Below, piece by piece: positions 1 through 10,363 of a DNA stretch of 10,363 nucleotides. The number at the start of each line of letters is the position of its first letter. The stretch's first letter is position 1. The DNA comes from a virus (Duplodnaviria; Heunggongvirae; Uroviricota; Caudoviricetes), in the IMG/VR virus record IMGVR_UViG_2654587726_000019, positions 1 through 10,363 of that record, one strand, 5' to 3'. The position numbers and the translations under genes were made by a program. Below the pieces are notes generated by a model, which ran no database searches, had not been told where the DNA came from, and saw only the letters and a program-made list of their open reading frames with translations.

Positions 1-49
1 CCCCCGCCGTTAGCAGGCTGGCGGCGGCAATCATTACCAGGAGCGTGTG

Positions 50-268
50 ATGGGCGGCTGGATTGAACATATCACCACCGAGGGCGAGCGCTGGGATAAT
101 CTGGCGTTCCTCTATTACGGCGATCCAATGGGCTATGAGCGCATCATTGTCGCTAACCCCCATATTGCGATCACGCCGACACTGGCCTCCGGGCTGCGGT
201 TGCGTATTCCGGTGATCGGCCCGATGCAGGTGCATAACGTTGATGAGGTGCCGCCGTGGCTCAGGTAA
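50..268 (+). CDS. Phage tail protein X-like (LysM-like small tail protein)
   Basis: ATG at 50 preceded by AGGAG (39-43); an in-frame GTG at 47 is the alternative start. The translation has a LysM-like pattern (W-D-x-LA-x-x-YYG ... ANP ... G-x-x-L-x-IP) as in P2 gpX-family proteins, and the size (~72 aa) fits. The stop overlaps the next gene. Confidence 0.6.
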   Translation: MGGWIEHITTEGERWDNLAFLYYGDPMGYERIIVANPHIAITPTLASGLRLRIPVIGPMQVHNVDEVPPWLR

Positions 269-1356
269 ATGCCGTTATCACCCCCGTTTTCACCCTGTTT
301 TACGGGCAGAAAGATATCACTCACGATATTGCTCCTTTTGTCCTGAGCGTGACGTATACCGACAGTCTCAAGAGCGAATCGGATGAAATCGACGTGCAGG
401 TGGAAGACACCGCCGGGCGCTGGCGCGAGGCGTGGTATCCGGGCAAAGGCGATATGCTGATGCTGAAGTTGGGCTATCAGGGCGAAGCGTTGCTGGACTG
501 TGGAGCGTTCTCCATCGATGAGATTGAGCTGGGCGCACCGCCGGATACGGTATCCATTCGCGGCGTGGCGACGTCGGTCAACAGCGCTCTGCGTACCGCC
601 TCCAGCGAGGGCTACGAAGAGACGACGCTGGATGCGATTGCCAGCCGTATCGCGCAGAAGCATGGTCTGAAGCTGGTCGGTCAGATAGAGCCGATTACCA
701 TTGACCGGGTGACGCAATACGCGGAAACCGACGTCGGTTTTCTGAAGCGGCTGGCGGGTGAGTATGGTTATGCGCTGAAAGTCACCACTGGCGAGCTGGT
801 GTTTTCCCATCTGGCTACACTGCGAAGTAACGCGCCGGTGACGACGCTGACGCCGCAGGATGTAGCGCGCTGGTCGCTGCGCGATACCATCAACCGCATC
901 TATAAGGATGCAAAGGTGGCGCATCAGAAGAGTAAAGAGAAGACGCTGGTGACGTACCACGCCGACGGCCCGCCGACCACGGAGACGCGTGGTAAATCGA
1001 CCAGCGCCGATACGCTCAAGGTCAATGCACGGGCGGCGGATCAGGGGACGGCGCAGGTGAAAGCCGAGGCGGCGCTGGATGACCATAACGAGTATCAGCA
1101 GACCGGTTCGCTCTCGATGATGGGCAACACGCAGCTTATCGCCGGGAACAAAATCACTCTCGACGGGTTCGGCGTGCTCTCCGGGGAGTGGCTGATCACC
1201 AGCGCCCGTCACTCGTTTGACCGTTCATCGGGCTACAGCACCGAAATTGAGGTCGGACGTGGCCCGAAAACGGCCTCCGGCGGCGGGAAGAAGAAAAAAC
1301 CGGATACGCTGACCGTCTATCACCCGGACGGCCCACCCACCCAGGAGAAAAAATGA
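256..1356 (+). CDS. Baseplate hub / phage late control gene D-like tail protein
   Basis: 366-aa ORF with a GTG start overlapping the end of the X-like gene and a GAGG upstream. The N-terminal region has a G-x-QGE-x-L-x-D-x-G-x-F-x-x-DEIE-x-x-GPPD pattern recalled from the P2 gpD / Mu gp44 family. Position immediately before the V/W/J/I genes fits. Confidence 0.65.
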   Translation: MAQVNAVITPVFTLFYGQKDITHDIAPFVLSVTYTDSLKSESDEIDVQVEDTAGRWREAWYPGKGDMLMLKLGYQGEALLDCGAFSIDEIELGAPPDTVSIRGVATSVNSALRTASSEGYEETTLDAIASRIAQKHGLKLVGQIEPITIDRVTQYAETDVGFLKRLAGEYGYALKVTTGELVFSHLATLRSNAPVTTLTPQDVARWSLRDTINRIYKDAKVAHQKSKEKTLVTYHADGPPTTETRGKSTSADTLKVNARAADQGTAQVKAEAALDDHNEYQQTGSLSMMGNTQLIAGNKITLDGFGVLSGEWLITSARHSFDRSSGYSTEIEVGRGPKTASGGGKKKKPDTLTVYHPDGPPTQEKK

Positions 1357-1844
1357 AAGGCGTCACCCGACAGACCGGGATTATCAGCGATATCGACGAG
1401 GTGAAGGTGTGCGTGCGCGTCACCCTGCCGGAATGCGACGATCTGCGCACCAACTGGCTCCCCATCCTGCAACGCAATACGCAGGACAATAAGGACTACT
1501 GGCTGCCGGATATCGGCGAGCAGGTGGAGGTGCTGCTGGATGATAACGGCGAGGATGGCGTGGTGCTGGGGGCGGTCTATTCGTCGGTGGATACGCCACC
1601 GGTGACGGACAAAGACAAGCGCTATGTGCGGTTCTCCGATAAGGCCGCGATTGAGTACGACCGCAAACAGCACCAGTTGACCATTAATGGCGGCATTGAA
1701 AAAATCGTGATTGAGGTGAAAACCAGCGTCAGCATCACCGCGCCGCAGGTGGTCATCACTGGTAATGTCCGCGTCACCGGCAATATCAGTGCGTCAGGCT
1801 CTATCATCGACGCTGGCGGCAATACCAACCATCACTCTCATTAA
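1353..1844 (+). CDS. Baseplate assembly protein V-like (central spike)
   Basis: 163-aa ORF; ATG overlaps the upstream TGA (ATGA coupling) with AGGAG 8 nt upstream. Size, position before a gpW-like gene and a Gly/Val-rich C-terminal beta-type segment fit the gpV / Mu gp45 family. Confidence 0.65.
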   Translation: MKGVTRQTGIISDIDEVKVCVRVTLPECDDLRTNWLPILQRNTQDNKDYWLPDIGEQVEVLLDDNGEDGVVLGAVYSSVDTPPVTDKDKRYVRFSDKAAIEYDRKQHQLTINGGIEKIVIEVKTSVSITAPQVVITGNVRVTGNISASGSIIDAGGNTNHHSH

Positions 1845-1872
1845 AGCGGTTTAATATCGCCACTTTAGCAAC

Positions 1873-1890
1873 GGGGGCGACAATGCCCCC
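1873..1890 (+). promoter_or_regulatory. Small hairpin GGGGGC-gacaat-GCCCCC in the V-W intergenic region, ending at the W start codon
   Basis: 6-bp perfect inverted repeat read from the sequence. It overlaps the expected ribosome-binding region of the gpW-like gene, which has no strong SD. Confidence 0.3.
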
Positions 1891-2250
1891 ATGAGCACAC
1901 AATCCCATCCTTTAAATCTGCACTGGCAACCGGCCCTGAAACGCGACGGCGAGTACGTCTGTGGGCTGGAGGATATCAGCCAGGCCGTTCACATCATTCT
2001 GCGCACGCCGCGCGGTAGCGATCCCCATCGCCCCTTTTTCGGTAGCGACCTGTGGCGCTATATCGACTGGCCTGCTGAACGGGCGATTCCCCATGTGGTG
2101 CGTGAGTCGGTGGAGGCTATCCGCCACTGGGAGCCGCGCTGCAAATTTCTCAAAGTGGTGCCGGAACTGGACGGCGAACATCTCACGCTGCGCATCCAGT
2201 GGCGCGCCGCCGATGGCGTTATTAATGAAACGGAGGTGGTATGGCGTTAG
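1891..2250 (+). CDS. Baseplate wedge protein, GPW/gp25 family
   Basis: 119-aa ORF containing LEDISQ-x-x-x-I-ILRTP-x-GS ... FGS-x-L ... WEPR, matching the conserved pattern of P2 gpW / T4 gp25-like proteins. Its stop overlaps the next gene's start. Confidence 0.7.
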   Translation: MSTQSHPLNLHWQPALKRDGEYVCGLEDISQAVHIILRTPRGSDPHRPFFGSDLWRYIDWPAERAIPHVVRESVEAIRHWEPRCKFLKVVPELDGEHLTLRIQWRAADGVINETEVVWR

Positions 2251-3356
2251 CTGAACCCGATTTTATCGACCGCGACCCGGCGCAAATCACCAGTGAGATG
2301 ATTGCGCAGTATGAAGCGGTGAGCGGTAAAACGCTCTATCCGGCGCAGGCGGAGCGGCTGCTGATTGATGTTATTGCCTATCGTGAAAATCTGCTGCGCA
2401 TCGGCATTCAGGAGGCGGCAAAGCAGAATCTGGTGGCGTTTTCCCGTGCGCCAATGCTCGATTACCTCGGCGAACTGGTGGGCGTGAAGCGCCTGCCTGC
2501 GCAGGCGGCACAGACCACGTTGCGGTTTTCCGTTGCCAGCGCGCAAAAGCGCAATGTGCTGATCCCGGAGGGCACCCGCGCCAGCGCGGCCAACAGCGTG
2601 ATGTTTGCCACCGATGACGATGTGCTGCTGCCAGCCGGAAGTCTGAGCGTCGATGTCACGGCCACATGTACCACCGCTGGCGTTGTGGGTAATGGCTGGC
2701 AACCGGCGCAGATTAGCGCACTGGTGGACAGCGTGGCAGGTGTCGATTTGCAGGTGACGAACATTACCGCGTCCGGCGGCGGCTGCGCCGATGAAAGCGA
2801 CGACGCCCTGCGCGAGCGTATCCGGCTGGCTCCTGAAAGTTTCAGTAACGCGGGGAGTTATGGCGCATACCGCTTTCATGCGCTGTCAGTCAGCCAGGCG
2901 ATTATCGACGTGGCCATCCTCGGCCCGGATGAGGGGCTGGATGAAGGTTGCGTGGAGATTTACCCGCTGACGCAGGACGGTCTGCCGGGCGATGAGTTGC
3001 TGGCACAGGTGGTGCAGGATGTCAGTAAAGAGAAGAAACGCCCGTTGACCGATAAGGTAAGCGCGAAGAAACCACTGCGCGTGGCATATCAGATTAACGC
3101 GCAACTCACGCTATTCACTAAAGCCGATCAGGACTCGACGCTGCTGGCCGCGCGTAAGGCCATCGCCGACTGGACGGCAGAGCGCGAGCGCCATCTGGGG
3201 CGGGATATCGTCCCCAATCAAATCATCAAAGTGTTGCAGGTGGCGGGTGTCTATGACGTGGCGCTGGAAACACCTGCCAAACGAGTGCTCGCGGCACATG
3301 AGTGGGCGCAGTGTACCTCGATTGATGTGACCATCGCCGGGGTGAGCGATGGATAA
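2241..3356 (+). CDS. Baseplate J-like protein
   Basis: 371-aa ORF; ATG overlaps the end of the W-like gene with GGAGG upstream. Size and position (after W, before I-like and fiber) match the gpJ / Mu gp47 family. Assigned by family-level recall, not by alignment. Confidence 0.65.
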   Translation: MALAEPDFIDRDPAQITSEMIAQYEAVSGKTLYPAQAERLLIDVIAYRENLLRIGIQEAAKQNLVAFSRAPMLDYLGELVGVKRLPAQAAQTTLRFSVASAQKRNVLIPEGTRASAANSVMFATDDDVLLPAGSLSVDVTATCTTAGVVGNGWQPAQISALVDSVAGVDLQVTNITASGGGCADESDDALRERIRLAPESFSNAGSYGAYRFHALSVSQAIIDVAILGPDEGLDEGCVEIYPLTQDGLPGDELLAQVVQDVSKEKKRPLTDKVSAKKPLRVAYQINAQLTLFTKADQDSTLLAARKAIADWTAERERHLGRDIVPNQIIKVLQVAGVYDVALETPAKRVLAAHEWAQCTSIDVTIAGVSDG

Positions 3357-4068
3357 GTTACCGCTTCAACCGCCGCTCGCCGGGGATGAACGCTTTACCC
3401 GGCTGGCAAATCTTGCCGCTGAACGCTTCGCACAACTCGATCTGACCGCGCTTCTGATTTACCTGGTGGATCTGGTGGATGCCACGGCGCTGCCGTCGCT
3501 GGCAGAACAGTTCCACGTTCAGGGGCTGGAAGGCTGGCTGTTTGCCCGCGATGAGCGACAAAAGCGCGATCTGATCAAGCAGGCCATTGAGCTGCACCGC
3601 TATCGCGGTACGCCGTGGGCAGTGCGTCAGGTACTGAAGATTCTGGCGTTGGACGGCGATATCAGCGAGTGGTTTGAGTATGGCGGTAAGCCGTACTTTT
3701 TCCGCATGGATGTCACGCTTGAGACGCGCGGGCTGACTGAGGATGAATTTAACGCGCTGATTGTGCTGATCCATGAGTACAAGAACGTCCGCTCAAAGCT
3801 GGAGATGCTGACTATCTGGCTGATTAACCAGAGCCAGATCCCGGTTATCGCCAGTGCTGTTCAGGGCGGCGAGATTGCTACCGTTCTGCCGTGGATTGCG
3901 GAGAGCGTGAGTCAGTCGTCTGCGGTTTATCTGGCGACGGAGTGTTTGAGTGCAGAGGTGGTAACGGTGTTGCCTCCGCTGCATGGCAATGTTGAGCAGA
4001 CCAGCGTTATGAGTGTTGGAGCGGGCTGCTGGAGTATTGAGTTTGTCACTGTTTACCCGGAGGAGTAA
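3349..4068 (+). CDS. Phage tail protein I-like (baseplate wedge, fiber attachment)
   Basis: 239-aa ORF whose start overlaps the J-like stop (ATGGATAA). It sits directly upstream of the tail fiber gene, as gpI / Mu gp48 does. Acidic, Leu-rich N-terminus is typical of the family. Confidence 0.6.
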   Translation: MDKLPLQPPLAGDERFTRLANLAAERFAQLDLTALLIYLVDLVDATALPSLAEQFHVQGLEGWLFARDERQKRDLIKQAIELHRYRGTPWAVRQVLKILALDGDISEWFEYGGKPYFFRMDVTLETRGLTEDEFNALIVLIHEYKNVRSKLEMLTIWLINQSQIPVIASAVQGGEIATVLPWIAESVSQSSAVYLATECLSAEVVTVLPPLHGNVEQTSVMSVGAGCWSIEFVTVYPEE

Positions 4069-5768
4069 TGGCGAGTGAATTTTTTACCATTTTAACCGCC
4101 GCTGGCCGCGCGAAGATTGCTGCGGCGCTGGCGGAACAAAAGCAGATAGTGCTGCAAACAATGGTCGTTGGCGACGGCGGCGGGCAGTATGCCGAACCGA
4201 AAGAGAGCCAGACAAAGGTGGTGCGTGAAGTCTGGCGCGGGTCACTGAATACGCTGAAAATCGCCCCGGAAAACCCGGCGTGGGTGATTGCCGAGGCGGT
4301 ACTGCCGGAAGCGAAAGGCGGCTGGTATATCCGCGAGGTGGGATCGCTGGATATGGACGGCGTGCTGATTGCCATCGGCAAGTTCCCGGAAACCTATAAG
4401 CCGAAGCTGCCTGCCGGGGCCAGTAAGCAAATTGTGATCCGCGCTGTGATGGAAGTGACGAACGCGGCGGCGGTAACGCTGATGGTTGATCCGTCGCTGG
4501 TGATGGCAACGGTAGATTATGTGGACTCCAGTATTGAAGAGCACGAAAGATCACATAATCACCCGGACGCAACGCTGACTCAGAAAGGCTTTACGCAGCT
4601 TAACAGCTCCACCAATAGCACGCTGGAAACGCAGGCAGCAACGCCGAAGGCGGTGAAGGCGGCGATGGATAAGGCGAATGAGGCACTGGAAAAAGCTGGG
4701 GCTGATAAAGCGCATAAACATCCGTGGGCCGATATTACCGGGGTGCCGGATGGGACAACGGCGCAGAAAGGGGTTGTGAAGCTTAATAGCTCAACGAACA
4801 GTACCAGTACGACGGAGGCTGCGACACCGAGTGCGGTTAAGGCGGCATATGACCTGGCGAATGGTAAGGCGGCGGGGAGCCATAAACATGCCTGGGGCGA
4901 TATTACCGGGGTACCGGATGGCACTACGGCGCAAAAAGGGATCGTAAAGCTCAACAGCGCGACGAACAGCACCAGTACTACCGAAGCGGCCACGCCCGGC
5001 GCAGTGAAGGCGGCGTATGACCTGGCGAACGGGAAAGCGGCTTCCAGCCATACTCACGCATGGAGTCAGATTACCGGCGTACCGGATGCAACTACAGCGC
5101 AAAAAGGGGTTGTGAAGCTTAATAGCGCGACGAACAGTACCAGTACGACTGAAGCCGCAACGCCGAGCGCGGTTAAGGCGGCGTATGACAAGGCGAATAC
5201 AGCAATCTCCAGTTTTGCTCTTTTCACGTCGAATGGGACGTTTACGGTGCCAGTCGGGGTAACGAAAGTGATGGTGGAAATGATTGGAGGTGGAGGTGGT
5301 GGCGGCGGCGGTGGTGTGGGTGGTGGTGAGCGAATTGGTTATCCGACAGCAGGTAAACCATCACTTTTTGTTCAAGGGATTGTTGCTGTGAACTCTGGAC
5401 AAAATGTAACCGTCACAGTCGGCGGAGGCGGTGTTGGGGGATCATCAAAAGTAGATACTGGTGGTGGTTCGATGACCGGGAGTAATGGGTACGCCGGAGG
5501 AAACTCAATTTTCTTAACGCTCACTTCTGTTGGTGGTAGCGGCGGCGGCGGTGCATTGCCAGATTCTGGTCCTGGCAACGCATTAAATGAGCCAGGTTCT
5601 GATTCAACGCATGGCTATGGCGGGGGGACTAAGTATAACTCGCAGAAAAATGCCGTAGGTTATGGTTCGAGTGGTGCGGCTGGTACCTCTAAAGGCGTCA
5701 GAACTGTTGAAGGGGACTCTACAGCAGGTGGCAATGGTGCTTCAGGTTTTGTCAGAATATGGTGGTAA
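4068..5768 (+). CDS. Tail fiber protein (P2 gpH / Mu S-like N-terminal domain, tandem fiber repeats, Gly-rich C-terminal tip)
   Basis: 566-aa ORF with GGAGG upstream; ATG overlaps the preceding TAA by 1 nt. N-terminal ~160 aa match the conserved gpH N-terminal pattern (VGDGGG, EVWR, SYKP-like, VMAT-x-DYVD-x-x-I-x-EHE-x-S). This is followed by four tandem ~56-aa repeats and a glycine-rich C-terminus. Confidence 0.85.
   Translation: MASEFFTILTAAGRAKIAAALAEQKQIVLQTMVVGDGGGQYAEPKESQTKVVREVWRGSLNTLKIAPENPAWVIAEAVLPEAKGGWYIREVGSLDMDGVLIAIGKFPETYKPKLPAGASKQIVIRAVMEVTNAAAVTLMVDPSLVMATVDYVDSSIEEHERSHNHPDATLTQKGFTQLNSSTNSTLETQAATPKAVKAAMDKANEALEKAGADKAHKHPWADITGVPDGTTAQKGVVKLNSSTNSTSTTEAATPSAVKAAYDLANGKAAGSHKHAWGDITGVPDGTTAQKGIVKLNSATNSTSTTEAATPGAVKAAYDLANGKAASSHTHAWSQITGVPDATTAQKGVVKLNSATNSTSTTEAATPSAVKAAYDKANTAISSFALFTSNGTFTVPVGVTKVMVEMIGGGGGGGGGGVGGGERIGYPTAGKPSLFVQGIVAVNSGQNVTVTVGGGGVGGSSKVDTGGGSMTGSNGYAGGNSIFLTLTSVGGSGGGGALPDSGPGNALNEPGSDSTHGYGGGTKYNSQKNAVGYGSSGAAGTSKGVRTVEGDSTAGGNGASGFVRIWW
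4554..5205 (+). repeat. Four tandem in-frame repeats (periods 159, 168, 168 bp) encoding phage tail-fiber repeat units
   Basis: Repeat units start at 4554, 4713, 4881 and 5049. Each encodes H-x-H-x-W-x-x-ITGVPD-x-TTAQKG-x-VKLNS-x-TNST ... EAATP-x-AVKAAYD. The last three copies are nearly identical at the protein level. Confidence 0.85.
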
Positions 5769-5771
5769 CAC

Positions 5772-6374
5772 ATGAAATATGCGTATTTTGAACCCTCATC
5801 AATGAAGGTTTTAGACTGGCTGGATACCGAACAATTATCCTTTGTTTTGCCTGACAGTGTTGTTTCGGTAACTGATGAGCAATGGTGTTATCGTGATCGT
5901 GAATGCTGGGTCAATATTTCAACCACAGAAATCATCACAACACCTCCACCCGGTGATTTTTATCGGCTTGATGGTGATAAGTGGGTGTATGACGCAACCA
6001 GCTATACTGCTGCGCTAGACGGTGCTAAGTCACTAGTTGTTAAGGCAATCAAGGCGCTACGCGATGAAGTCACTGCCGATTATATCATTATCGGCGACTA
6101 TCACTTTCACAGCGATGCCAGCAGTCGTATCCAGCAAATGTCACTCACCAGGATGGGGCAAACGAAGCAAATCCCCAAAGGCTTAATGTGGCAGACCAAA
6201 AACCTCGGACTTCTCGAGCTAACCAATGAAATCGCGGCGCAGTTTGAGTCCATTACAATGGATCACGATATGCGCCTCTTTGCCAATGCCCAGCGACATA
6301 TTGCCGCCGTTGAGGCGCTGGAAGATATCCTGGCAGTTCAGGAGTATGACTACTCTACGGGGTGGCAACCATGA
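5772..6374 (+). CDS. Putative tail-fiber-associated protein (assembly chaperone candidate; family not recognised)
   Basis: 200-aa ORF starting 4 nt after the fiber stop. It shares the fiber tip's low GC content. Its position is that of a Tfa/gpG-type chaperone, but the sequence does not match the classical Tfa pattern as I recall it. Confidence 0.4.
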   Translation: MKYAYFEPSSMKVLDWLDTEQLSFVLPDSVVSVTDEQWCYRDRECWVNISTTEIITTPPPGDFYRLDGDKWVYDATSYTAALDGAKSLVVKAIKALRDEVTADYIIIGDYHFHSDASSRIQQMSLTRMGQTKQIPKGLMWQTKNLGLLELTNEIAAQFESITMDHDMRLFANAQRHIAAVEALEDILAVQEYDYSTGWQP

Positions 6375-6823
6375 GGCCGGTGTATCTGGCGTTCTATAAA
6401 GGGCGAGCCGATCATCATGGGTTCGCACGTCTTTCCGACTGGCTGACGCGGCTGGTGACGCGGGGTGAGTATTCTCACTGCGAGCTGGCTGTTGACCAGG
6501 GTAACGGCGAGTTTCTTTGTTATTCGTCGTCGGTGCGTGACAAGGGGGTGCGCTGTAAGCAAATGCCGCTGCCACTCGATAAATGGGATCTTATCGCGCT
6601 AAATGCGCTACCAACCAGTGTGGAGCAGTTCTTCCGTCGAAACGACGCCATGAAATATGACTGGCTGGGGGCTGTGGGATTCGTTGTTTTTAATCGTGGA
6701 CGGGAGAACAAATATTTCTGTAGCGAGTTTTGCGCAGATTTTCTTGGACTGGTCGATAGCTGGCGTTATTCACCCAATATGCTCCACGCGCTGGCCAGCA
6801 GTATTCAGACTATGAAGTTATAA
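6371..6823 (+). CDS. Hypothetical Cys/His-rich protein (moron); function unknown
   Basis: 150-aa ORF; ATG at 6371 overlaps the upstream TGA (ATGA), with an alternative GTG at 6362. GC-rich, with a coding-like codon pattern. Contains GEYSHCEL and YFCSEFCADF motifs. No confident family assignment. Confidence 0.5.
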   Translation: MRPVYLAFYKGRADHHGFARLSDWLTRLVTRGEYSHCELAVDQGNGEFLCYSSSVRDKGVRCKQMPLPLDKWDLIALNALPTSVEQFFRRNDAMKYDWLGAVGFVVFNRGRENKYFCSEFCADFLGLVDSWRYSPNMLHALASSIQTMKL

Positions 6824-6836
6824 GGGAAACAGCGAC

Positions 6837-6862
6837 CAGAGTCAGGCGGTCACCTGACTCTG
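6837..6862 (+). promoter_or_regulatory. Perfect 10-bp-stem hairpin (CAGAGTCAGG-cggtca-CCTGACTCTG) just downstream of the moron ORF
   Basis: The inverted repeat is read directly from the sequence. There is no U-tract after it, so it is not a canonical intrinsic terminator; it could be an RNA stability or attenuation element. Confidence 0.4.
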
Positions 6863-6907
6863 ACCAGCTAACCCGCAGGAAGTGTCTGCGAGCCGCCCAG
6901 GGCTGCC

Positions 6908-6923
6908 ACTGATGGCCATCAGT
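6908..6923. promoter_or_regulatory. Perfect 16-bp palindrome ACTGATGGCCATCAGT upstream of the methylase gene (candidate operator)
   Basis: Exact dyad symmetry read from the sequence, ~47 bp upstream of the methylase ATG. Any regulatory role is inferred. Confidence 0.35.
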
Positions 6924-6969
6924 CCAATAAGCCTAACAGTTTTTCACATACTGAAAAAGGTTTGCAGAA

Positions 6970-7743
6970 ATGAAAACATTACCCATTATTCCGTGGCCCG
7001 GCGGTAAGCGTCGTCTGGCCAAAAAGTTATTACCGTTATTTCCTGAGCACCAGTGTTATGTAGAGCCATTCTGCGGCGGTGCAGCCTTGTATTTCATGAA
7101 GGAGCCGGTTGAAGCTGAAGTCCTGAACGATATCAACGGCGAACTGGTGAATCTGTACCGTGTGGTTAAAAATCATCTTGAAGAGTTTGTGCGCCAGTTC
7201 AAGTGGGCGTTGAGCAGCAGGCAGATTTTTGAATGGTCGAAAATGACCATCCCGGAGACGCTAACTGATATTCAGCGTGCAGCGCGGTTTTATTATCTCC
7301 AGAAGCAATCATTCGGAGGGAAAGTGGAATCACAGACGTATGGAACGGCGACCACTTCTGCACCACGGCTTAATCTGCTAAGGCTGGAAGAGGAGTTGAG
7401 CGCCGCCCATTTGCGGCTATCACGCACGTTTGTAGAACATTTACCGTGGCGTACCTGCATTGAGAAGTATGATCGCCCGCACACACTGTTCTATTGCGAT
7501 CCCCCGTATTGGGGAACGGAGGGCTACGGTGTTGAATTTGGACTGGAGCAGTACACCCAACTTGCAGAGTTGGCCAGAACGATAAAAGGCAGGATGTTGA
7601 TCAGTGTGAACGATATCCCGGAGATGCGTGAAACCTTTGCGGACTTGTCGATTGATACGGTAGATATTCGCTATACGTTGAGCGGTGGGCCTAATGCTAA
7701 TCGCTCGAAAGTCAGCCGTGAGCTGGTCATTCGTAACTGGTAA
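6970..7743 (+). CDS. Dam-family (D12 class) N6-adenine DNA methyltransferase, orphan
   Basis: 257-aa ORF with the N-terminal pattern WPGGK ... EPFCGGAA (AdoMet-binding FxGxG-type motif), DINGELVNLY, and the catalytic DPPY motif (FYCDPPYW). This is the architecture of E. coli Dam / T4 Dam-like methylases. No endonuclease gene is recognisable beside it. Confidence 0.8.
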   Translation: MKTLPIIPWPGGKRRLAKKLLPLFPEHQCYVEPFCGGAALYFMKEPVEAEVLNDINGELVNLYRVVKNHLEEFVRQFKWALSSRQIFEWSKMTIPETLTDIQRAARFYYLQKQSFGGKVESQTYGTATTSAPRLNLLRLEEELSAAHLRLSRTFVEHLPWRTCIEKYDRPHTLFYCDPPYWGTEGYGVEFGLEQYTQLAELARTIKGRMLISVNDIPEMRETFADLSIDTVDIRYTLSGGPNANRSKVSRELVIRNW

Positions 7744-7850
7744 AGTGGAATTCTTTTGCAATAGGTGAAAAAAGTCGCAGCGCGATTTATCTCGCAGATT
7801 CAGGCGAATTTATCGCGCGCGGCTTTAGCACCGGAGCGACCGGTTATTAC

Positions 7851-8780
7851 GTGCTAATTCTGTCGCTGGTATCCACCATTCCGTACAGTAAAAAGCTACC
7901 AACATCGAAATTAATGATGCCCCTGGGATTTGCCACCAACCACCCGCTTCTTCCTATCAATCTCGCGCTTCTCTTTGGCGTTACGGCGACCGTACTCGAA
8001 ACCGCGGGGTTTCATCAGGAGATTTCGATGGGGCGCTTTGCGCTGGTGAATCTCATCATGTCAGCGGCTTTCCTCGCATGGAGTCTTATTGCCTACCGTT
8101 TTCTTCCGGATCATCCCATTGCGGATGCTTCCGAGGATGCGCTGGCGGCACGCGAGGAAACGTTTAACGCCCTTCCTGCCTGGAAAGAATATTGCACTAT
8201 TGCCGCATTCGCTGTCAGCGTTATCGGCATGATGCTAATGAACATTCTGGGAAATATCGCCTTCGTTATTCCGGGTCTTGCGGGTGCGTTTGTTCTGATG
8301 ATCGATGTACTGGACTTCAAAGAAGTTCGCGATCATATGGGGGCTCCGGTCATTTTAATGATGGCGGGGGTGATCGGTGTAGCTGATGCACTGGCGGGCA
8401 CCGGCTTTACGGCGATGGTTGGCGATGCCGTTGCAGGTGTGCTCGGTTCTGGCGTCTCACCGTTTGTATTTATTGTCGCCTTTGCTTTGCTTACCAGTAC
8501 CTGCGCCACCTTCACGGGTTCGAATATGGGGTCAGTATATATTTTTGCCCCCATCGCCATTGCCGCCTGTACTAGCCTTGGGCTTAACCCGACCGCTGCC
8601 GCGATTGCGGTGGTGATTTCTGGCTGGAATGGCGGCTATATGCCTATTGACGGAATGCCAGCCATGATCCTCGGAATGGGGAAATACAAACTTCCCGAAT
8701 TCTGGGTGTTCTCTGTACCAATGTATCTCATCCGCATTCTGGCGCTTTGTGCAGGCGCTGTTTTTATCTTCCCAATGTAA
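7851..8780 (+). CDS. Integral membrane permease (ion-transporter-superfamily-like), possibly a 5'-truncated gene
   Basis: Strongly hydrophobic ORF with multiple predicted membrane-spanning segments and Gly/Ala-rich re-entrant-loop-like motifs (TFTGSNMG, NGGYMPIDG). The track start is a GTG at 7851 with a poor RBS. An in-frame ATG at 8028 has a strong AGGAG 6 nt upstream. The frame stays open upstream to 7737 with no good start codon. Confidence 0.5.
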   Translation: MLILSLVSTIPYSKKLPTSKLMMPLGFATNHPLLPINLALLFGVTATVLETAGFHQEISMGRFALVNLIMSAAFLAWSLIAYRFLPDHPIADASEDALAAREETFNALPAWKEYCTIAAFAVSVIGMMLMNILGNIAFVIPGLAGAFVLMIDVLDFKEVRDHMGAPVILMMAGVIGVADALAGTGFTAMVGDAVAGVLGSGVSPFVFIVAFALLTSTCATFTGSNMGSVYIFAPIAIAACTSLGLNPTAAAIAVVISGWNGGYMPIDGMPAMILGMGKYKLPEFWVFSVPMYLIRILALCAGAVFIFPM

Positions 8781-8787
8781 TCTCAGA

Positions 8788-8825
8788 CAAAAAAAGCGGC
8801 AGAGAAGATCCCTGCCGCTTTTTAT
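8788..8825. terminator. Bidirectional rho-independent terminator
   Basis: GC-rich stem GCGGCAG / CTGCCGC (8796-8802 and 8812-8818) with a 9-nt loop, flanked by an A-run (8789-8795) and a T-run (8819-8825). It lies between the convergent permease and nagE genes. Confidence 0.65.
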
Positions 8826-8830
8826 TGTTG

Positions 8831-8854
8831 GATGCGACGCTGCCGCGTCGCATC
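8831..8854. repeat. Palindromic hairpin GATGCGACGC-tgcc-GCGTCGCATC (REP-like element or secondary nagE terminator stem)
   Basis: Perfect 10-bp inverted repeat immediately 3' of the nagE stop. It resembles enterobacterial REP palindromes in having a GATGCG core, but no adjacent U-tract. Confidence 0.4.
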
Positions 8855-8868
8855 AGACATAAAGCAGA

Positions 8869-10363
8869 TTACTTTTTGATTTCATACAGCGGTGTTTGAC
8901 CCGCCACAACATGGCCCTGAGCTTTAATGATAAGGCCGCTGAAATCGTCGATATTGCTGCAAACCACCGGGCTAATCATCGAACGGGCGTTAGCGTTCAG
9001 GTAATCCAGATCCATTTCCAGAATCGGTTGCCCTGCGCTTACCTGCGCGCCCTCTTCTACCAGACGTTTAAAGCCTTTACCTTCCAGCGCTACGGTGTCG
9101 ATACCCATATGGACGACGATCTCCTCGCCTTTTTCGGTTTCCAGACAGAATGCGTGGTTGGTGTTGAAGATTTTCACGATTGTTCCTGCGGCTGGTGATA
9201 CGACGATTTTATCTGTCGGTTTCACCGCCACACCGTCACCCACCGCTTTGCTGGCGAATGCTTCGTCAGGAACCTGATCCAGTGCCACAACATCCCCGGT
9301 AATCGGGGATACCAGCTCCGCGATAGATACCGCGTTTGGTACAGCCTGCGGTTTTGCTACAGGAGCGGCAGTTGCCGGAGTTGCTTCAGCTGACGCAGCG
9401 GCTACCGGACCACCGGCAACGACTTTCTTCATCGCATCGCCGATGGATTCTGCTTTCGCGCCAACAATCACCTGAATAGTCTGTTTGTTCAGTTTCACTA
9501 CCCCAGAAGCACCCAGACGTTTACACATCGCATCGTTGACGCGAGCTGAGTCAACCACGGTAAGGCGCAGACGAGTAATACAGGCATCAATGGCTTTCAG
9601 GTTGTCAGTACCGCCAACCGCAGCAATATAGTTGGTTGCCAGTTGATTGAGACCTTCTTCAGTATTGCTGTTAGCCTCTTCAGTAACGATCTCGTCTTCT
9701 TTATCTTCACGACCCGGCGTTTTCAGGTTGAACATGCGGATAACCAAACTGAACACCACGAAGTAGATAGCGAAGAAGACAACCCCCATCACCAGCAGCA
9801 TCCAGACGTTCTGGCTGGCGGCCGGCAGGTTATACATCAACGCGTAGTCGATAGCCCCCGCAGAGAAAGAGAAGCCGGCATGGATACCCAGCAACGTTGC
9901 CACAAACAGGCTGATACCGGTCAGCAGTGCGTGCAGGAGGTACAGCAGCGGTGCAAGGAACATGAACAGGAATTCCAGCGGCTCAGTCACACCGGTCAGG
10001 AACGCAGTAACAGCAACAGAAAGCAGCATCCCGCCAACCATCGGACGACGCTCTTTCGGTGCTGCGAAGTACATCGCCAGCGCCGCACCTGGCAGACCGA
10101 ACATCATAATCGGGAAGAAGCCGGACATGAACATCCCCGCGGTGCCGTCACCGGCATAGAAGCGGTTGATATCACCGTGGAAAACCGTTCCCGCCGCGTT
10201 GGTGAATTCACCAATCTGGAACCAGGCGATGGTGTTCAGCACCTGATGCAGACCGGTTGGGATCAGCAGACGGTTGATGAAACCAAAGATACCGGAACCC
10301 AGCGCGCCCGCAGAAACGATCCACTCGCCGCCTGCATGGATAGCGTGCTGTACCGGCGGCCAG
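8869..10363 (-). CDS. nagE: PTS N-acetylglucosamine-specific EIICBA component (3' portion; the 5' end lies beyond the window)
   Basis: The minus-strand frame is open to the window edge. The translation shows the end of a IIC membrane domain, a IIB domain with the phospho-cysteine motif (DACITRLR), an Ala/Pro-rich linker, and a C-terminal Crr-like IIA-Glc domain (VHMGIDTVALEGKGFKRLVEEG), ending YEIKK. A fused CBA order with a Crr-like IIA domain is characteristic of NagE. Confidence 0.85.
   Translation of the reverse strand, partial: WPPVQHAIHAGGEWIVSAGALGSGIFGFINRLLIPTGLHQVLNTIAWFQIGEFTNAAGTVFHGDINRFYAGDGTAGMFMSGFFPIMMFGLPGAALAMYFAAPKERRPMVGGMLLSVAVTAFLTGVTEPLEFLFMFLAPLLYLLHALLTGISLFVATLLGIHAGFSFSAGAIDYALMYNLPAASQNVWMLLVMGVVFFAIYFVVFSLVIRMFNLKTPGREDKEDEIVTEEANSNTEEGLNQLATNYIAAVGGTDNLKAIDACITRLRLTVVDSARVNDAMCKRLGASGVVKLNKQTIQVIVGAKAESIGDAMKKVVAGGPVAAASAEATPATAAPVAKPQAVPNAVSIAELVSPITGDVVALDQVPDEAFASKAVGDGVAVKPTDKIVVSPAAGTIVKIFNTNHAFCLETEKGEEIVVHMGIDTVALEGKGFKRLVEEGAQVSAGQPILEMDLDYLNANARSMISPVVCSNIDDFSGLIIKAQGHVVAGQTPLYEIKK

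Follow-up and report, generated by a model that had tools for sequence, protein, structure and literature searches.

A predicted permuted NlpC/P60 enzyme of the tail-fibre module and a Dam-like methylase in the mom position at the right end of a BcepMu-like prophage

We analysed a stretch of viral DNA of 10,363 nucleotides (nt) (hereafter the window; positions 1 to 10,363 of the IMG/VR record IMGVR_UViG_2654587726_000019, Caudoviricetes), in which two genes lie side by side on the plus strand close to the right end of a prophage. The first (6371–6823; here called the small gene) encodes a protein of 150 amino acids (aa), and the second (6970–7743) encodes an orphan Dam-family (D12 class) N6-adenine DNA methyltransferase of 257 aa; they are separated by a non-coding spacer (6824–6969). 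Our best explanation of the region 6371–7827, which taken as a whole we consider probable, is that it holds two functionally independent units that are neighbours by position and not a functional pair: the small gene would belong with the tail-fibre genes upstream, and the methylase gene would be DNA-modification cargo in the place where a sister prophage has mom.

The small gene follows tail-fibre chaperone genes

The ATG of the small gene at 6371 overlaps the stop codon of the preceding gene (TGA, 6372–6374; the sequence at the overlap is CAACCATGAGG). Both the coordinates of the two open reading frames (ORFs; 5772–6374 and 6371–6823) and the ATGA overlap by which they would be translationally coupled are exactly as described in an earlier reading of this DNA (the original prediction). 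The upstream gene (5772–6374, plus strand) encodes a 200-aa protein resembling tail-fibre assembly proteins or chaperones, with a match to the Pfam family DUF4376 (E = 1.4e-9) and to phrog_1807/2837 (tail).

We surveyed the neighbourhood of the small gene in 82 loci (80 from IMG/VR and two annotated loci). In 65 of them the small gene begins before an upstream ORF of ∼200 aa has ended, and the two share 1–11 nt (4 nt in 48 loci, 1 nt in seven, 8 nt in seven and 11 nt in three). Among 48 overlapping upstream ORFs that were scanned, 32 are assigned to DUF4376 and eight to Caudo_TAP, which are two different families of tail-fibre chaperones. The order fibre gene, chaperone gene, small gene is also found in the siphoviruses pAN and Moraxella Mcat2, and no sigma-70-like promoter was detected before the small gene (between 5600 and 6900).

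The genes that follow the small gene are of many kinds. We looked for methylase genes in the 2.5 kb after the small gene, in 57 viral loci with sufficient sequence and in 76 loci from a set with one genome per species. com with a Dam-like methylase gene, an adenine methylase gene of the SuMu gp53 type, or mom was found in 23 of the viral loci and none of these in the other 34; in the species-level set, an adenine methylase gene is present downstream in 39 loci and absent from 37. Where no methylase gene is found, the neighbours include the tail sheath gene, genes for CHAP or M15 endolysins together with holin and Rz-like genes, and genes for a hexapeptide acyltransferase, an AT3-SGNH O-acetyltransferase, a GT1 glycosyltransferase or a RlaP nucleotidyltransferase (the last on the other strand). 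The constant partner of the small gene is the fibre chaperone gene, not the methylase gene; judged by gene order and predicted translational coupling, the small gene belongs to the tail-fibre module.

The 150-aa protein is a predicted permuted NlpC/P60 enzyme

The original prediction had found no recognisable family for the small protein, and indeed we obtained no match for it in Pfam or NCBIfam; it does belong to a family in PHROGs, however (phrog_1128, E = 4.8e-57, labelled 'enoyl-CoA hydratase/carnithine racemase-like'). A profile made from an alignment of 32 sequences matches one solved structure, the Bacillus cereus 'cysteine peptidase' 3KW0 (E = 5.5e-5); in this alignment the YSHCE of the small protein (nt 6470–6484) corresponds to FSHTG, and its FCSEF (nt 6716–6730) corresponds to ICSEF. 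The two motifs contain His36 and Cys117, respectively, which are the predicted catalytic residues. Ten positions are invariant among the 32 sequences (H36, E38, S54, R56, D57, Y96, D97, C117, S118 and E119). The protein had been described as Cys/His-rich, which is an overstatement: it has five Cys and four His in 150 aa, of which only His36 and Cys117 are invariant (Cys37 and Cys50 are conserved in at least 90% of the sequences).

The AlphaFold (AF2) model of the small protein (predicted local distance difference test, pLDDT, 88; predicted template modelling score, pTM, 0.84) has a papain-like fold of the permuted NlpC/P60 (YiiX) type, and its fold matches in BFVD are uncharacterised phage proteins and one protein annotated as a member of the YaeF/YiiX C92 family. 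Because of the match to 3KW0, the invariant His and Cys and the predicted fold, we assign the small protein to the circularly permuted NlpC/P60 superfamily, as a putative enzyme in which the His precedes the Cys. It does not reach the threshold of the Pfam family PF05708 (Peptidase_C92), which two of the 32 homologues match with E = 0.035 only; as its members miss this threshold, phrog_1128 is, judged by profile scores, a separate and uncurated family within the permuted NlpC/P60 superfamily. We rejected the crotonase (enoyl-CoA hydratase) identity, since no profile of that family matches the protein and its predicted fold is papain-like; GenBank uses the same label, both for gp51 of SuMu and for copies of the exact small protein in E. 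coli.

The family is large, with 3223 clusters at 50% identity (E ≤ 1e-3), and all of its members have ∼100–250 aa. In one database protein of 247 aa (P0294), the C-terminal domain of a Mu transposase is fused to the C-terminal half of the small protein's domain, probably through an artefact of assembly or rearrangement. The exact small protein and the exact methylase are already present in public databases, on 218 and 97 contigs. The family is catalogued and mis-annotated, and it appears that nobody has studied its members.

Enzymes of the permuted NlpC/P60 group form an acyl-thioester on the Cys, and the YiiX and LRAT relatives are tied to lipids: YiiX crystals contained a fatty acid, and activity on lipids is described for members from B. 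cereus (PMC7387801, PMC12994826). By analogy, a lipid or an acyl group is more likely to be the substrate of the small enzyme than peptidoglycan. We saw no signal peptide or membrane segment in the small protein when its N-terminal sequence (MRPVYLAFYKGRADHHG) was judged by eye.

Activity on lipids would also suit a moron, that is, a gene expressed in the lysogen whose product serves lysogenic conversion or superinfection exclusion by acting on a lipid-linked surface structure (lipopolysaccharide or lipoprotein). The small gene lies near the prophage end, its GC content (52%) is lower than that of the baseplate genes (56–60%), and its downstream neighbours in enterobacteria include the genes for the hexapeptide acyltransferase, the AT3-SGNH O-acetyltransferase and the glycosyltransferase mentioned above. 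But there is no promoter-like site upstream, the start of the gene overlaps a late chaperone gene in the 65 loci, its product lacks an evident export signal, and the gene is also found in phages in which the tail sheath or holin gene comes next; we regard a moron as unlikely. It is very unlikely, in our opinion, that the small enzyme is instead an accessory factor in lysis (a phospholipase or acyl-hydrolase contributing to the breach of the envelope, whose place after the fibre genes is accidental). Besides the lipid-active fold family, this role has in its favour that holin, endolysin (CHAP or M15) and Rz-like genes directly follow the small gene in phage pAN and in several loci from Neisseriaceae; in the window and in most loci, however, lysis genes are not among the immediate neighbours, and the sole constant neighbour is the chaperone gene upstream.

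An orphan Dam-like methylase

The methylase scores 100.7 bits against Pfam PF02086 (cut-off 22) and 116.5 bits against TIGR00571 'dam', which is barely above the cut-off of 114.85. Its motifs are WPGGK (nt 6994–7008), FCGGA (nt 7069–7083, residues 34–38) and DPPY (nt 7498–7509, residues 177–180). The catalytic motif IV (DPPY) and the variant FCGGA of motif I, which is the S-adenosylmethionine (AdoMet) motif, align with the corresponding motifs of DpnM and EcoDam, the best relatives in PDB (E ∼1e-15). A Dam-like N6-adenine methyltransferase with DPPY is what had been predicted; motif I had been given as FxGxG, which is not literally what the sequence reads. Orthology with EcoDam was rejected, as the score of the methylase against NCBIfam NF008152 is 70.9 bits for a cut-off of 441. 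The methylase is 72% identical to that of E. coli phage PhiKM, 66% to Burkholderia phiE125 gp27 and 65% to a protein of Pseudomonas phage B3 (annotated 'Dam modification methylase'). The literature on B3, VP882, phiE125 and MuM16-1 contained nothing usable on the target of the methylase.

The orphan status of the methylase is confirmed: between its stop codon and the prophage end at 7827 there are 84 nt with no ORF. A restriction-modification-like or exclusion module, another suggestion of the original prediction, finds no counterpart in the data, as we found no nuclease ORF and no match to a model of a defence system with a partner nuclease. PADLOC assigns the methylase to methyltransferase models only (including, more weakly, PD-Lambda-5_B, which is itself a methyltransferase-like component), and its sole result for the small protein is an insignificant match to BrxB (E = 0.046).

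The region had no megablast match among 50,697 phage records. No complete E. coli genome has the methylase gene at the megablast level, and only two have the small gene together with com–mom. Long antisense ORFs are found inside the methylase gene and the structural genes (e.g. an ORF of 106 aa on the minus strand, 7441–7761), and we assume that they are by-products of GC-rich coding sequence.

The methylase gene occupies the mom position

One of the related prophages, in E. coli A35, has the order fibre gene, DUF4376 gene, gene for a hypothetical 150-aa protein, com, mom and prophage end. Its small protein is 85% identical to that of the window, and its DNA is 87.6% identical to the window over 6300–6973 and unrelated beyond: the aligned identity runs to GGTTTGCAGAA and breaks between GCAGAA and ATG, after which the window reads ATGAAAAC (methylase, MKT...) and A35 reads TGACAGACAAAATGCATG (Com, MTDKMHVRCTQC...). 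The methylase gene is the last gene at the right end of the window's prophage, and com–mom is found at the same place in A35. An IMG/VR contig (L097) has the same arrangement as the window, with a methylase that is 96% identical. On the other side of the swap, the shared sequence is limited to the final ∼25 nt of the phage. Because the identity between A35 and the window stops at this point, we read the com–mom unit and the methylase gene as having been exchanged precisely at the start codon, with a hairpin, a palindrome and the putative ribosome-binding site upstream of it being kept. The coding sequence annotated as 'Com family' in A35 by RefSeq (85 aa; locus L001, 4613–4870) apparently has an N-terminal extension that is spurious: MTDKMHVRCTQC is probably the start of the zinc-finger protein, and the only 'com' similarity of the window is to that extension.

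The spacer (6824–6969, plus strand) is a conserved non-coding region that is shared with the region upstream of com–mom in A35, at ∼90% identity (132 out of 146 alignment positions are identical, by manual count). An inverted-repeat search of the spacer returned two perfect elements, each with a chance of occurrence in 146 nt of roughly 0.2% (our own estimate) and both conserved in A35 and L097; a dyad-symmetric element upstream of the methylase gene had been noted in the original prediction. The first is a hairpin (6837–6862, plus strand) with 10-nt arms (6837–6846 and 6853–6862) separated by 6 nt. It starts 14 nt after the stop codon of the small gene and has no T-run, and its stem is kept among the window, A35 and L097 while the loop varies; it may be a 3′ hairpin or a weak terminator of the late tail operon. 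The second is a 16-bp palindrome (ACTGATGGCCATCAGT, 6908–6923), identical in A35 and L097, of which each related phage contig has a single copy, located upstream of either mom or the methylase gene and nowhere else. We consider it a candidate site for a dimeric late activator. No sigma-70-like promoter was detected between 6700 and 7900, which fits an activator-dependent late promoter like Pmom, and the spacer as a whole would be a mom-type activator-dependent regulatory region with a ribosome-binding site. The spacer RNA folds better than shuffled controls (z = −3.0), to which we attach no mechanism.

The cargo at the prophage end is an O-acetyltransferase gene in BcepMu, com–mom in A35 and the methylase gene in the window, in line with the proposal that the region after the tail-fibre genes is a hotspot for variable cargo. 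SuMu and many loci of Pasteurellaceae and Neisseriaceae have the small gene, com and a methylase gene in this order. In some Neisseriaceae relatives (L040, 4639–6081; L108; L122), the slot under Com control that follows the small gene contains no mom and no methylase gene: its product of ∼379 aa has an ABC-ATPase-like P-loop half and a GNAT acetyltransferase half (phrog_11143, 'unknown function', E = 4.6e-151), has no sequence relative in PDB, and could be an undescribed Com-regulated DNA-modification enzyme.

Experiments on FluMu, Pnme1 and Hia showed that the methylases encoded in their mom position produce N6-methyladenine (m6A) and block cleavage by many restriction enzymes (Drozdz et al. 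2012, PMC3299994). From its position we interpret the methylase of the window as mom-slot DNA-modification cargo of a transposable phage, a kind already known since 2012. Its most likely role, by analogy, is anti-restriction, one of the options that had been put forward. It is also possible that the methylase has a role internal to the phage, in replication, in the control of transposition or packaging or in the avoidance of mismatch repair, or that it regulates host genes epigenetically. In favour of such a role, a Dam-family enzyme is carried here in a host that already has Dam, and other phage Dam enzymes have known roles of this kind, e.g. in the packaging of P1 DNA. The gene lies, however, in the exact slot of mom, whose known role is anti-restriction, methylases of the same slot have the blocking activity just described, and the enzyme is not an orthologue of EcoDam; we think a role in phage biology or host regulation rather doubtful.

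Least credible to us is a functional module of two genes, in which the Cys–His enzyme would activate, restrain or complement the methylase, or in which the two would form a joint system of defence or anti-defence. The two genes are adjacent, and the counts given above (a methylase or Mom within 2.5 kb in 23 of the 57 viral loci, an adenine methylase in 39 of the 76 species-level loci) are what such a module has in its favour. Yet the genes are separated by the hairpin and by the 146-nt region shared with com–mom, and it is the chaperone gene that the small gene overlaps. The downstream slot may hold Mom, either of two adenine-methylase subfamilies or the ATPase–GNAT protein, and 34 viral and 37 genomic loci have the tail sheath, lysis genes or O-antigen enzymes instead. 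Conversely, phage B3 has a Com–methylase pair and no small gene, and 740 phage records contain relatives of the methylase versus 24 with relatives of the small protein. The PADLOC matches, limited to methyltransferase models, also argue against a joint system. The two-gene cassette of the original prediction therefore does not hold, as the small gene is attached to the chaperone gene and occurs in phages that have no methylase gene. The pairing was to be judged coincidental on two grounds, and they fared differently: the methylase is indeed found without the small gene in most phages, but the small protein is not a known assembly protein such as a second fibre chaperone. It matches neither Caudo_TAP, DUF4376 nor any other chaperone family in Pfam and PHROGs, and it is linked to the fibre module by gene order and by the overlap of its start with the stop of the chaperone gene.

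The prophage and its insertion site

The baseplate protein gpJ encoded in the window is 60% identical to that of the Bcepmuvirus phages PhiKM/KP12 and 54% identical to that of BcepMu. On this basis, we read the window as containing the tail module X-D-V-W-J-I-H and the right end of a BcepMu-like transposable (Mu-type) prophage.

The DNA to the right of 7827 is E. coli chromosome, with 100% identity to strains of the CFT073 type. It starts with the 3′ part (7828–8780, plus strand) of an E. coli permease gene of the SLC13 family (Pfam CitMHS and Na_sulph_symp), which is intact in CFT073 and split here by the prophage. The interrupted gene adjoins nagE and is broken near codon 110. The prophage's right terminal region (7744–7827) ends in ...ATTTATCGCGCGCGGCTTTA, which is common to the A35 prophage and contig L097, and both diverge directly after it. 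The A35 prophage sits upstream of grxA; the sister prophages are thus found at other chromosomal sites, as expected for transposition, and the GGCTTTA end at 7827 is common to three independent insertions (window, A35 and L097). Since prophages at different sites end at the same base, we take 7827 as the prophage end and the insertion as transposition-like. An end at 7830, with the canonical terminal CA, was rejected because L097 diverges directly after GGCTTTA. Two direct copies of ATTTATCnCGC lie in the last 84 nt (7785–7795 and 7808–7818, 23 nt apart) and are probably transposase-binding repeats.

Between 47 and 7743, the GC content falls from 56–60% in the baseplate genes to 47% in the chaperone gene, 52% in the small gene and 50% in the methylase gene, and the distal fibre module and the cargo accordingly look like mosaic additions. 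The fibre gene (4068–5768) contains 2.9 tandem copies of a 168-nt (56-aa) repeat at 4713–5198, and the C-terminal part of its product is glycine-rich, with a run of nine Gly.

Discussion

In the explanation that we favour, the small gene would be the last cistron of the late tail operon and would be translated by coupling to the chaperone gene. Its product would be cytoplasmic and would form an acyl-thioester on Cys117 with His36 acting as the base. It may act with or for the tail-fibre and host-recognition module; its target would be the fibre together with its chaperone, or else a lipid-linked component of the envelope that is associated with the receptor. The hairpin would close the tail operon, and the conserved regulatory region of ∼145 bp would then drive the methylase gene, late and dependent on an activator but without the translational activator Com (the timing and the promoter are inferred). 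Methylation of the replicating phage DNA before packaging would protect it from restriction in the next host.

A number of observations weigh against this explanation, and they concern both genes. On the side of the methylase, we found no ORF with a CxxC...CxxC zinc finger and no remnant of com in 6824–6969. The spacer also contains no GATC, and for this reason a mom-type Dam/OxyR switch is not evident. The palindrome was not found at other late operons, not even in degenerate form, in 14 kb of the same phage; because it recurs nowhere else there, its role as an activator site is that of a candidate only. The segment aligned to the recognition hairpin of EcoDam and DpnM differs in the methylase, and GATC specificity, if real, would be redundant in a Dam+ E. 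coli. As for the small gene, the presence of an adenine methylase gene in 39 out of 76 species-level loci is above pure independence, unless carriage by Mu-like phages accounts for the excess. Homologues of the small protein (35% identity) are found in jumbo phages of Ralstonia (RP12, RP31 and the FLC phages), and in RP12, the sole one of these contexts that was inspected (L086, 3995–4438), the gene is solitary, on the strand opposite to its neighbours and away from the tail genes. Among 1.8 billion representative proteins we found no informative domain fusion of the small protein. It goes unmentioned in the text and supplements of the genomic and proteomic paper on SuMu, and association with the virion is unsupported.

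The methylase is one more case in which a Mu-like phage has swapped the DNA-modification gene at the end of its genome, and it changes little. The clean swap at the start codon behind a shared regulatory region can be regarded as a natural experiment on the exchange of cargo and on regulation without Com. Of the two, the small protein is more useful as a lead, since it belongs to a large phage family of Cys–His proteins that is mislabelled and almost always tied to chaperone genes; studying it might uncover a new step in how the fibre matures or the receptor is handled. More tentatively, and with a good deal of doubt, we suggest that the family is an unrecognised class of accessory enzymes of tail-fibre modules: late thiol acyl-hydrolases or acyl-transferases that move with receptor-binding cassettes across myoviruses and siphoviruses. 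They would modify the fibre or chaperone (e.g. by acylation, or by removal of a ubiquitin-like conjugate attached by the host) or a lipid-linked receptor component, perhaps affecting host range, re-adsorption or counter-defence.

Comparison with known systems

The small protein can be compared with the YaeF/YiiX enzymes (E. coli YiiX, 2IF6; B. cereus BCE_A0238, 3KW0; Peptidase_C92), which have 180–214 aa; it is shorter (150 aa), phage-borne and attached to chaperone genes. Cargo genes behind the fibre genes, such as the O-acetyltransferase gp53 of BcepMu and the morons at the G-FI position of P2, have the same map position as the two genes of the window, and P2-like relatives carry the small gene with the chaperone gene on one side and the tail-sheath gene on the other. 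A moron is usually equipped with a promoter and a terminator of its own, whereas the small gene is translationally coupled to the late operon.

Methylases of the same subfamily as that of the window (63–66% identity over the full length) are B3 ORF48, phiE125 gp27, phi1026b gp26 and the adenine methylase of Vibrio phage VP882. None of these phages has the small gene beside the methylase gene; moreover, the Com–methylase pair of B3 is in the middle of the genome, ahead of the tape-measure gene, and the phages of Burkholderia and Vibrio are not of the transposable type.

The com–mom unit of Mu occupies the same genomic slot, and in A35 com–mom stands behind the ∼145-bp region that is ∼90% identical to the window's. 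Mom is an adenine-carbamoylmethylating enzyme and not a methyltransferase, however, and the window has neither Com nor a GATC cluster; no homologue of the small gene was found in Mu itself among the phage records. Comparable in arrangement are the com–methyltransferase modules (Hin1523 of FluMu, Nme1821 of Pnme1 and Hia5; PMC3299994), in which, as in the window, an N6-adenine methyltransferase with DPPY is last at the right end and replaces mom. The Haemophilus, Neisseria and SuMu loci share even the small permuted NlpC/P60 gene, which is there located just upstream of com. The enzymes are of different kinds: those of the com–methyltransferase modules belong to the SuMu gp53/COG3392 subfamily (which we take to include Hia5), are nearly non-specific for sequence and are preceded by Com, whereas the enzyme of the window is Dam-like and follows the shared regulatory region without Com.

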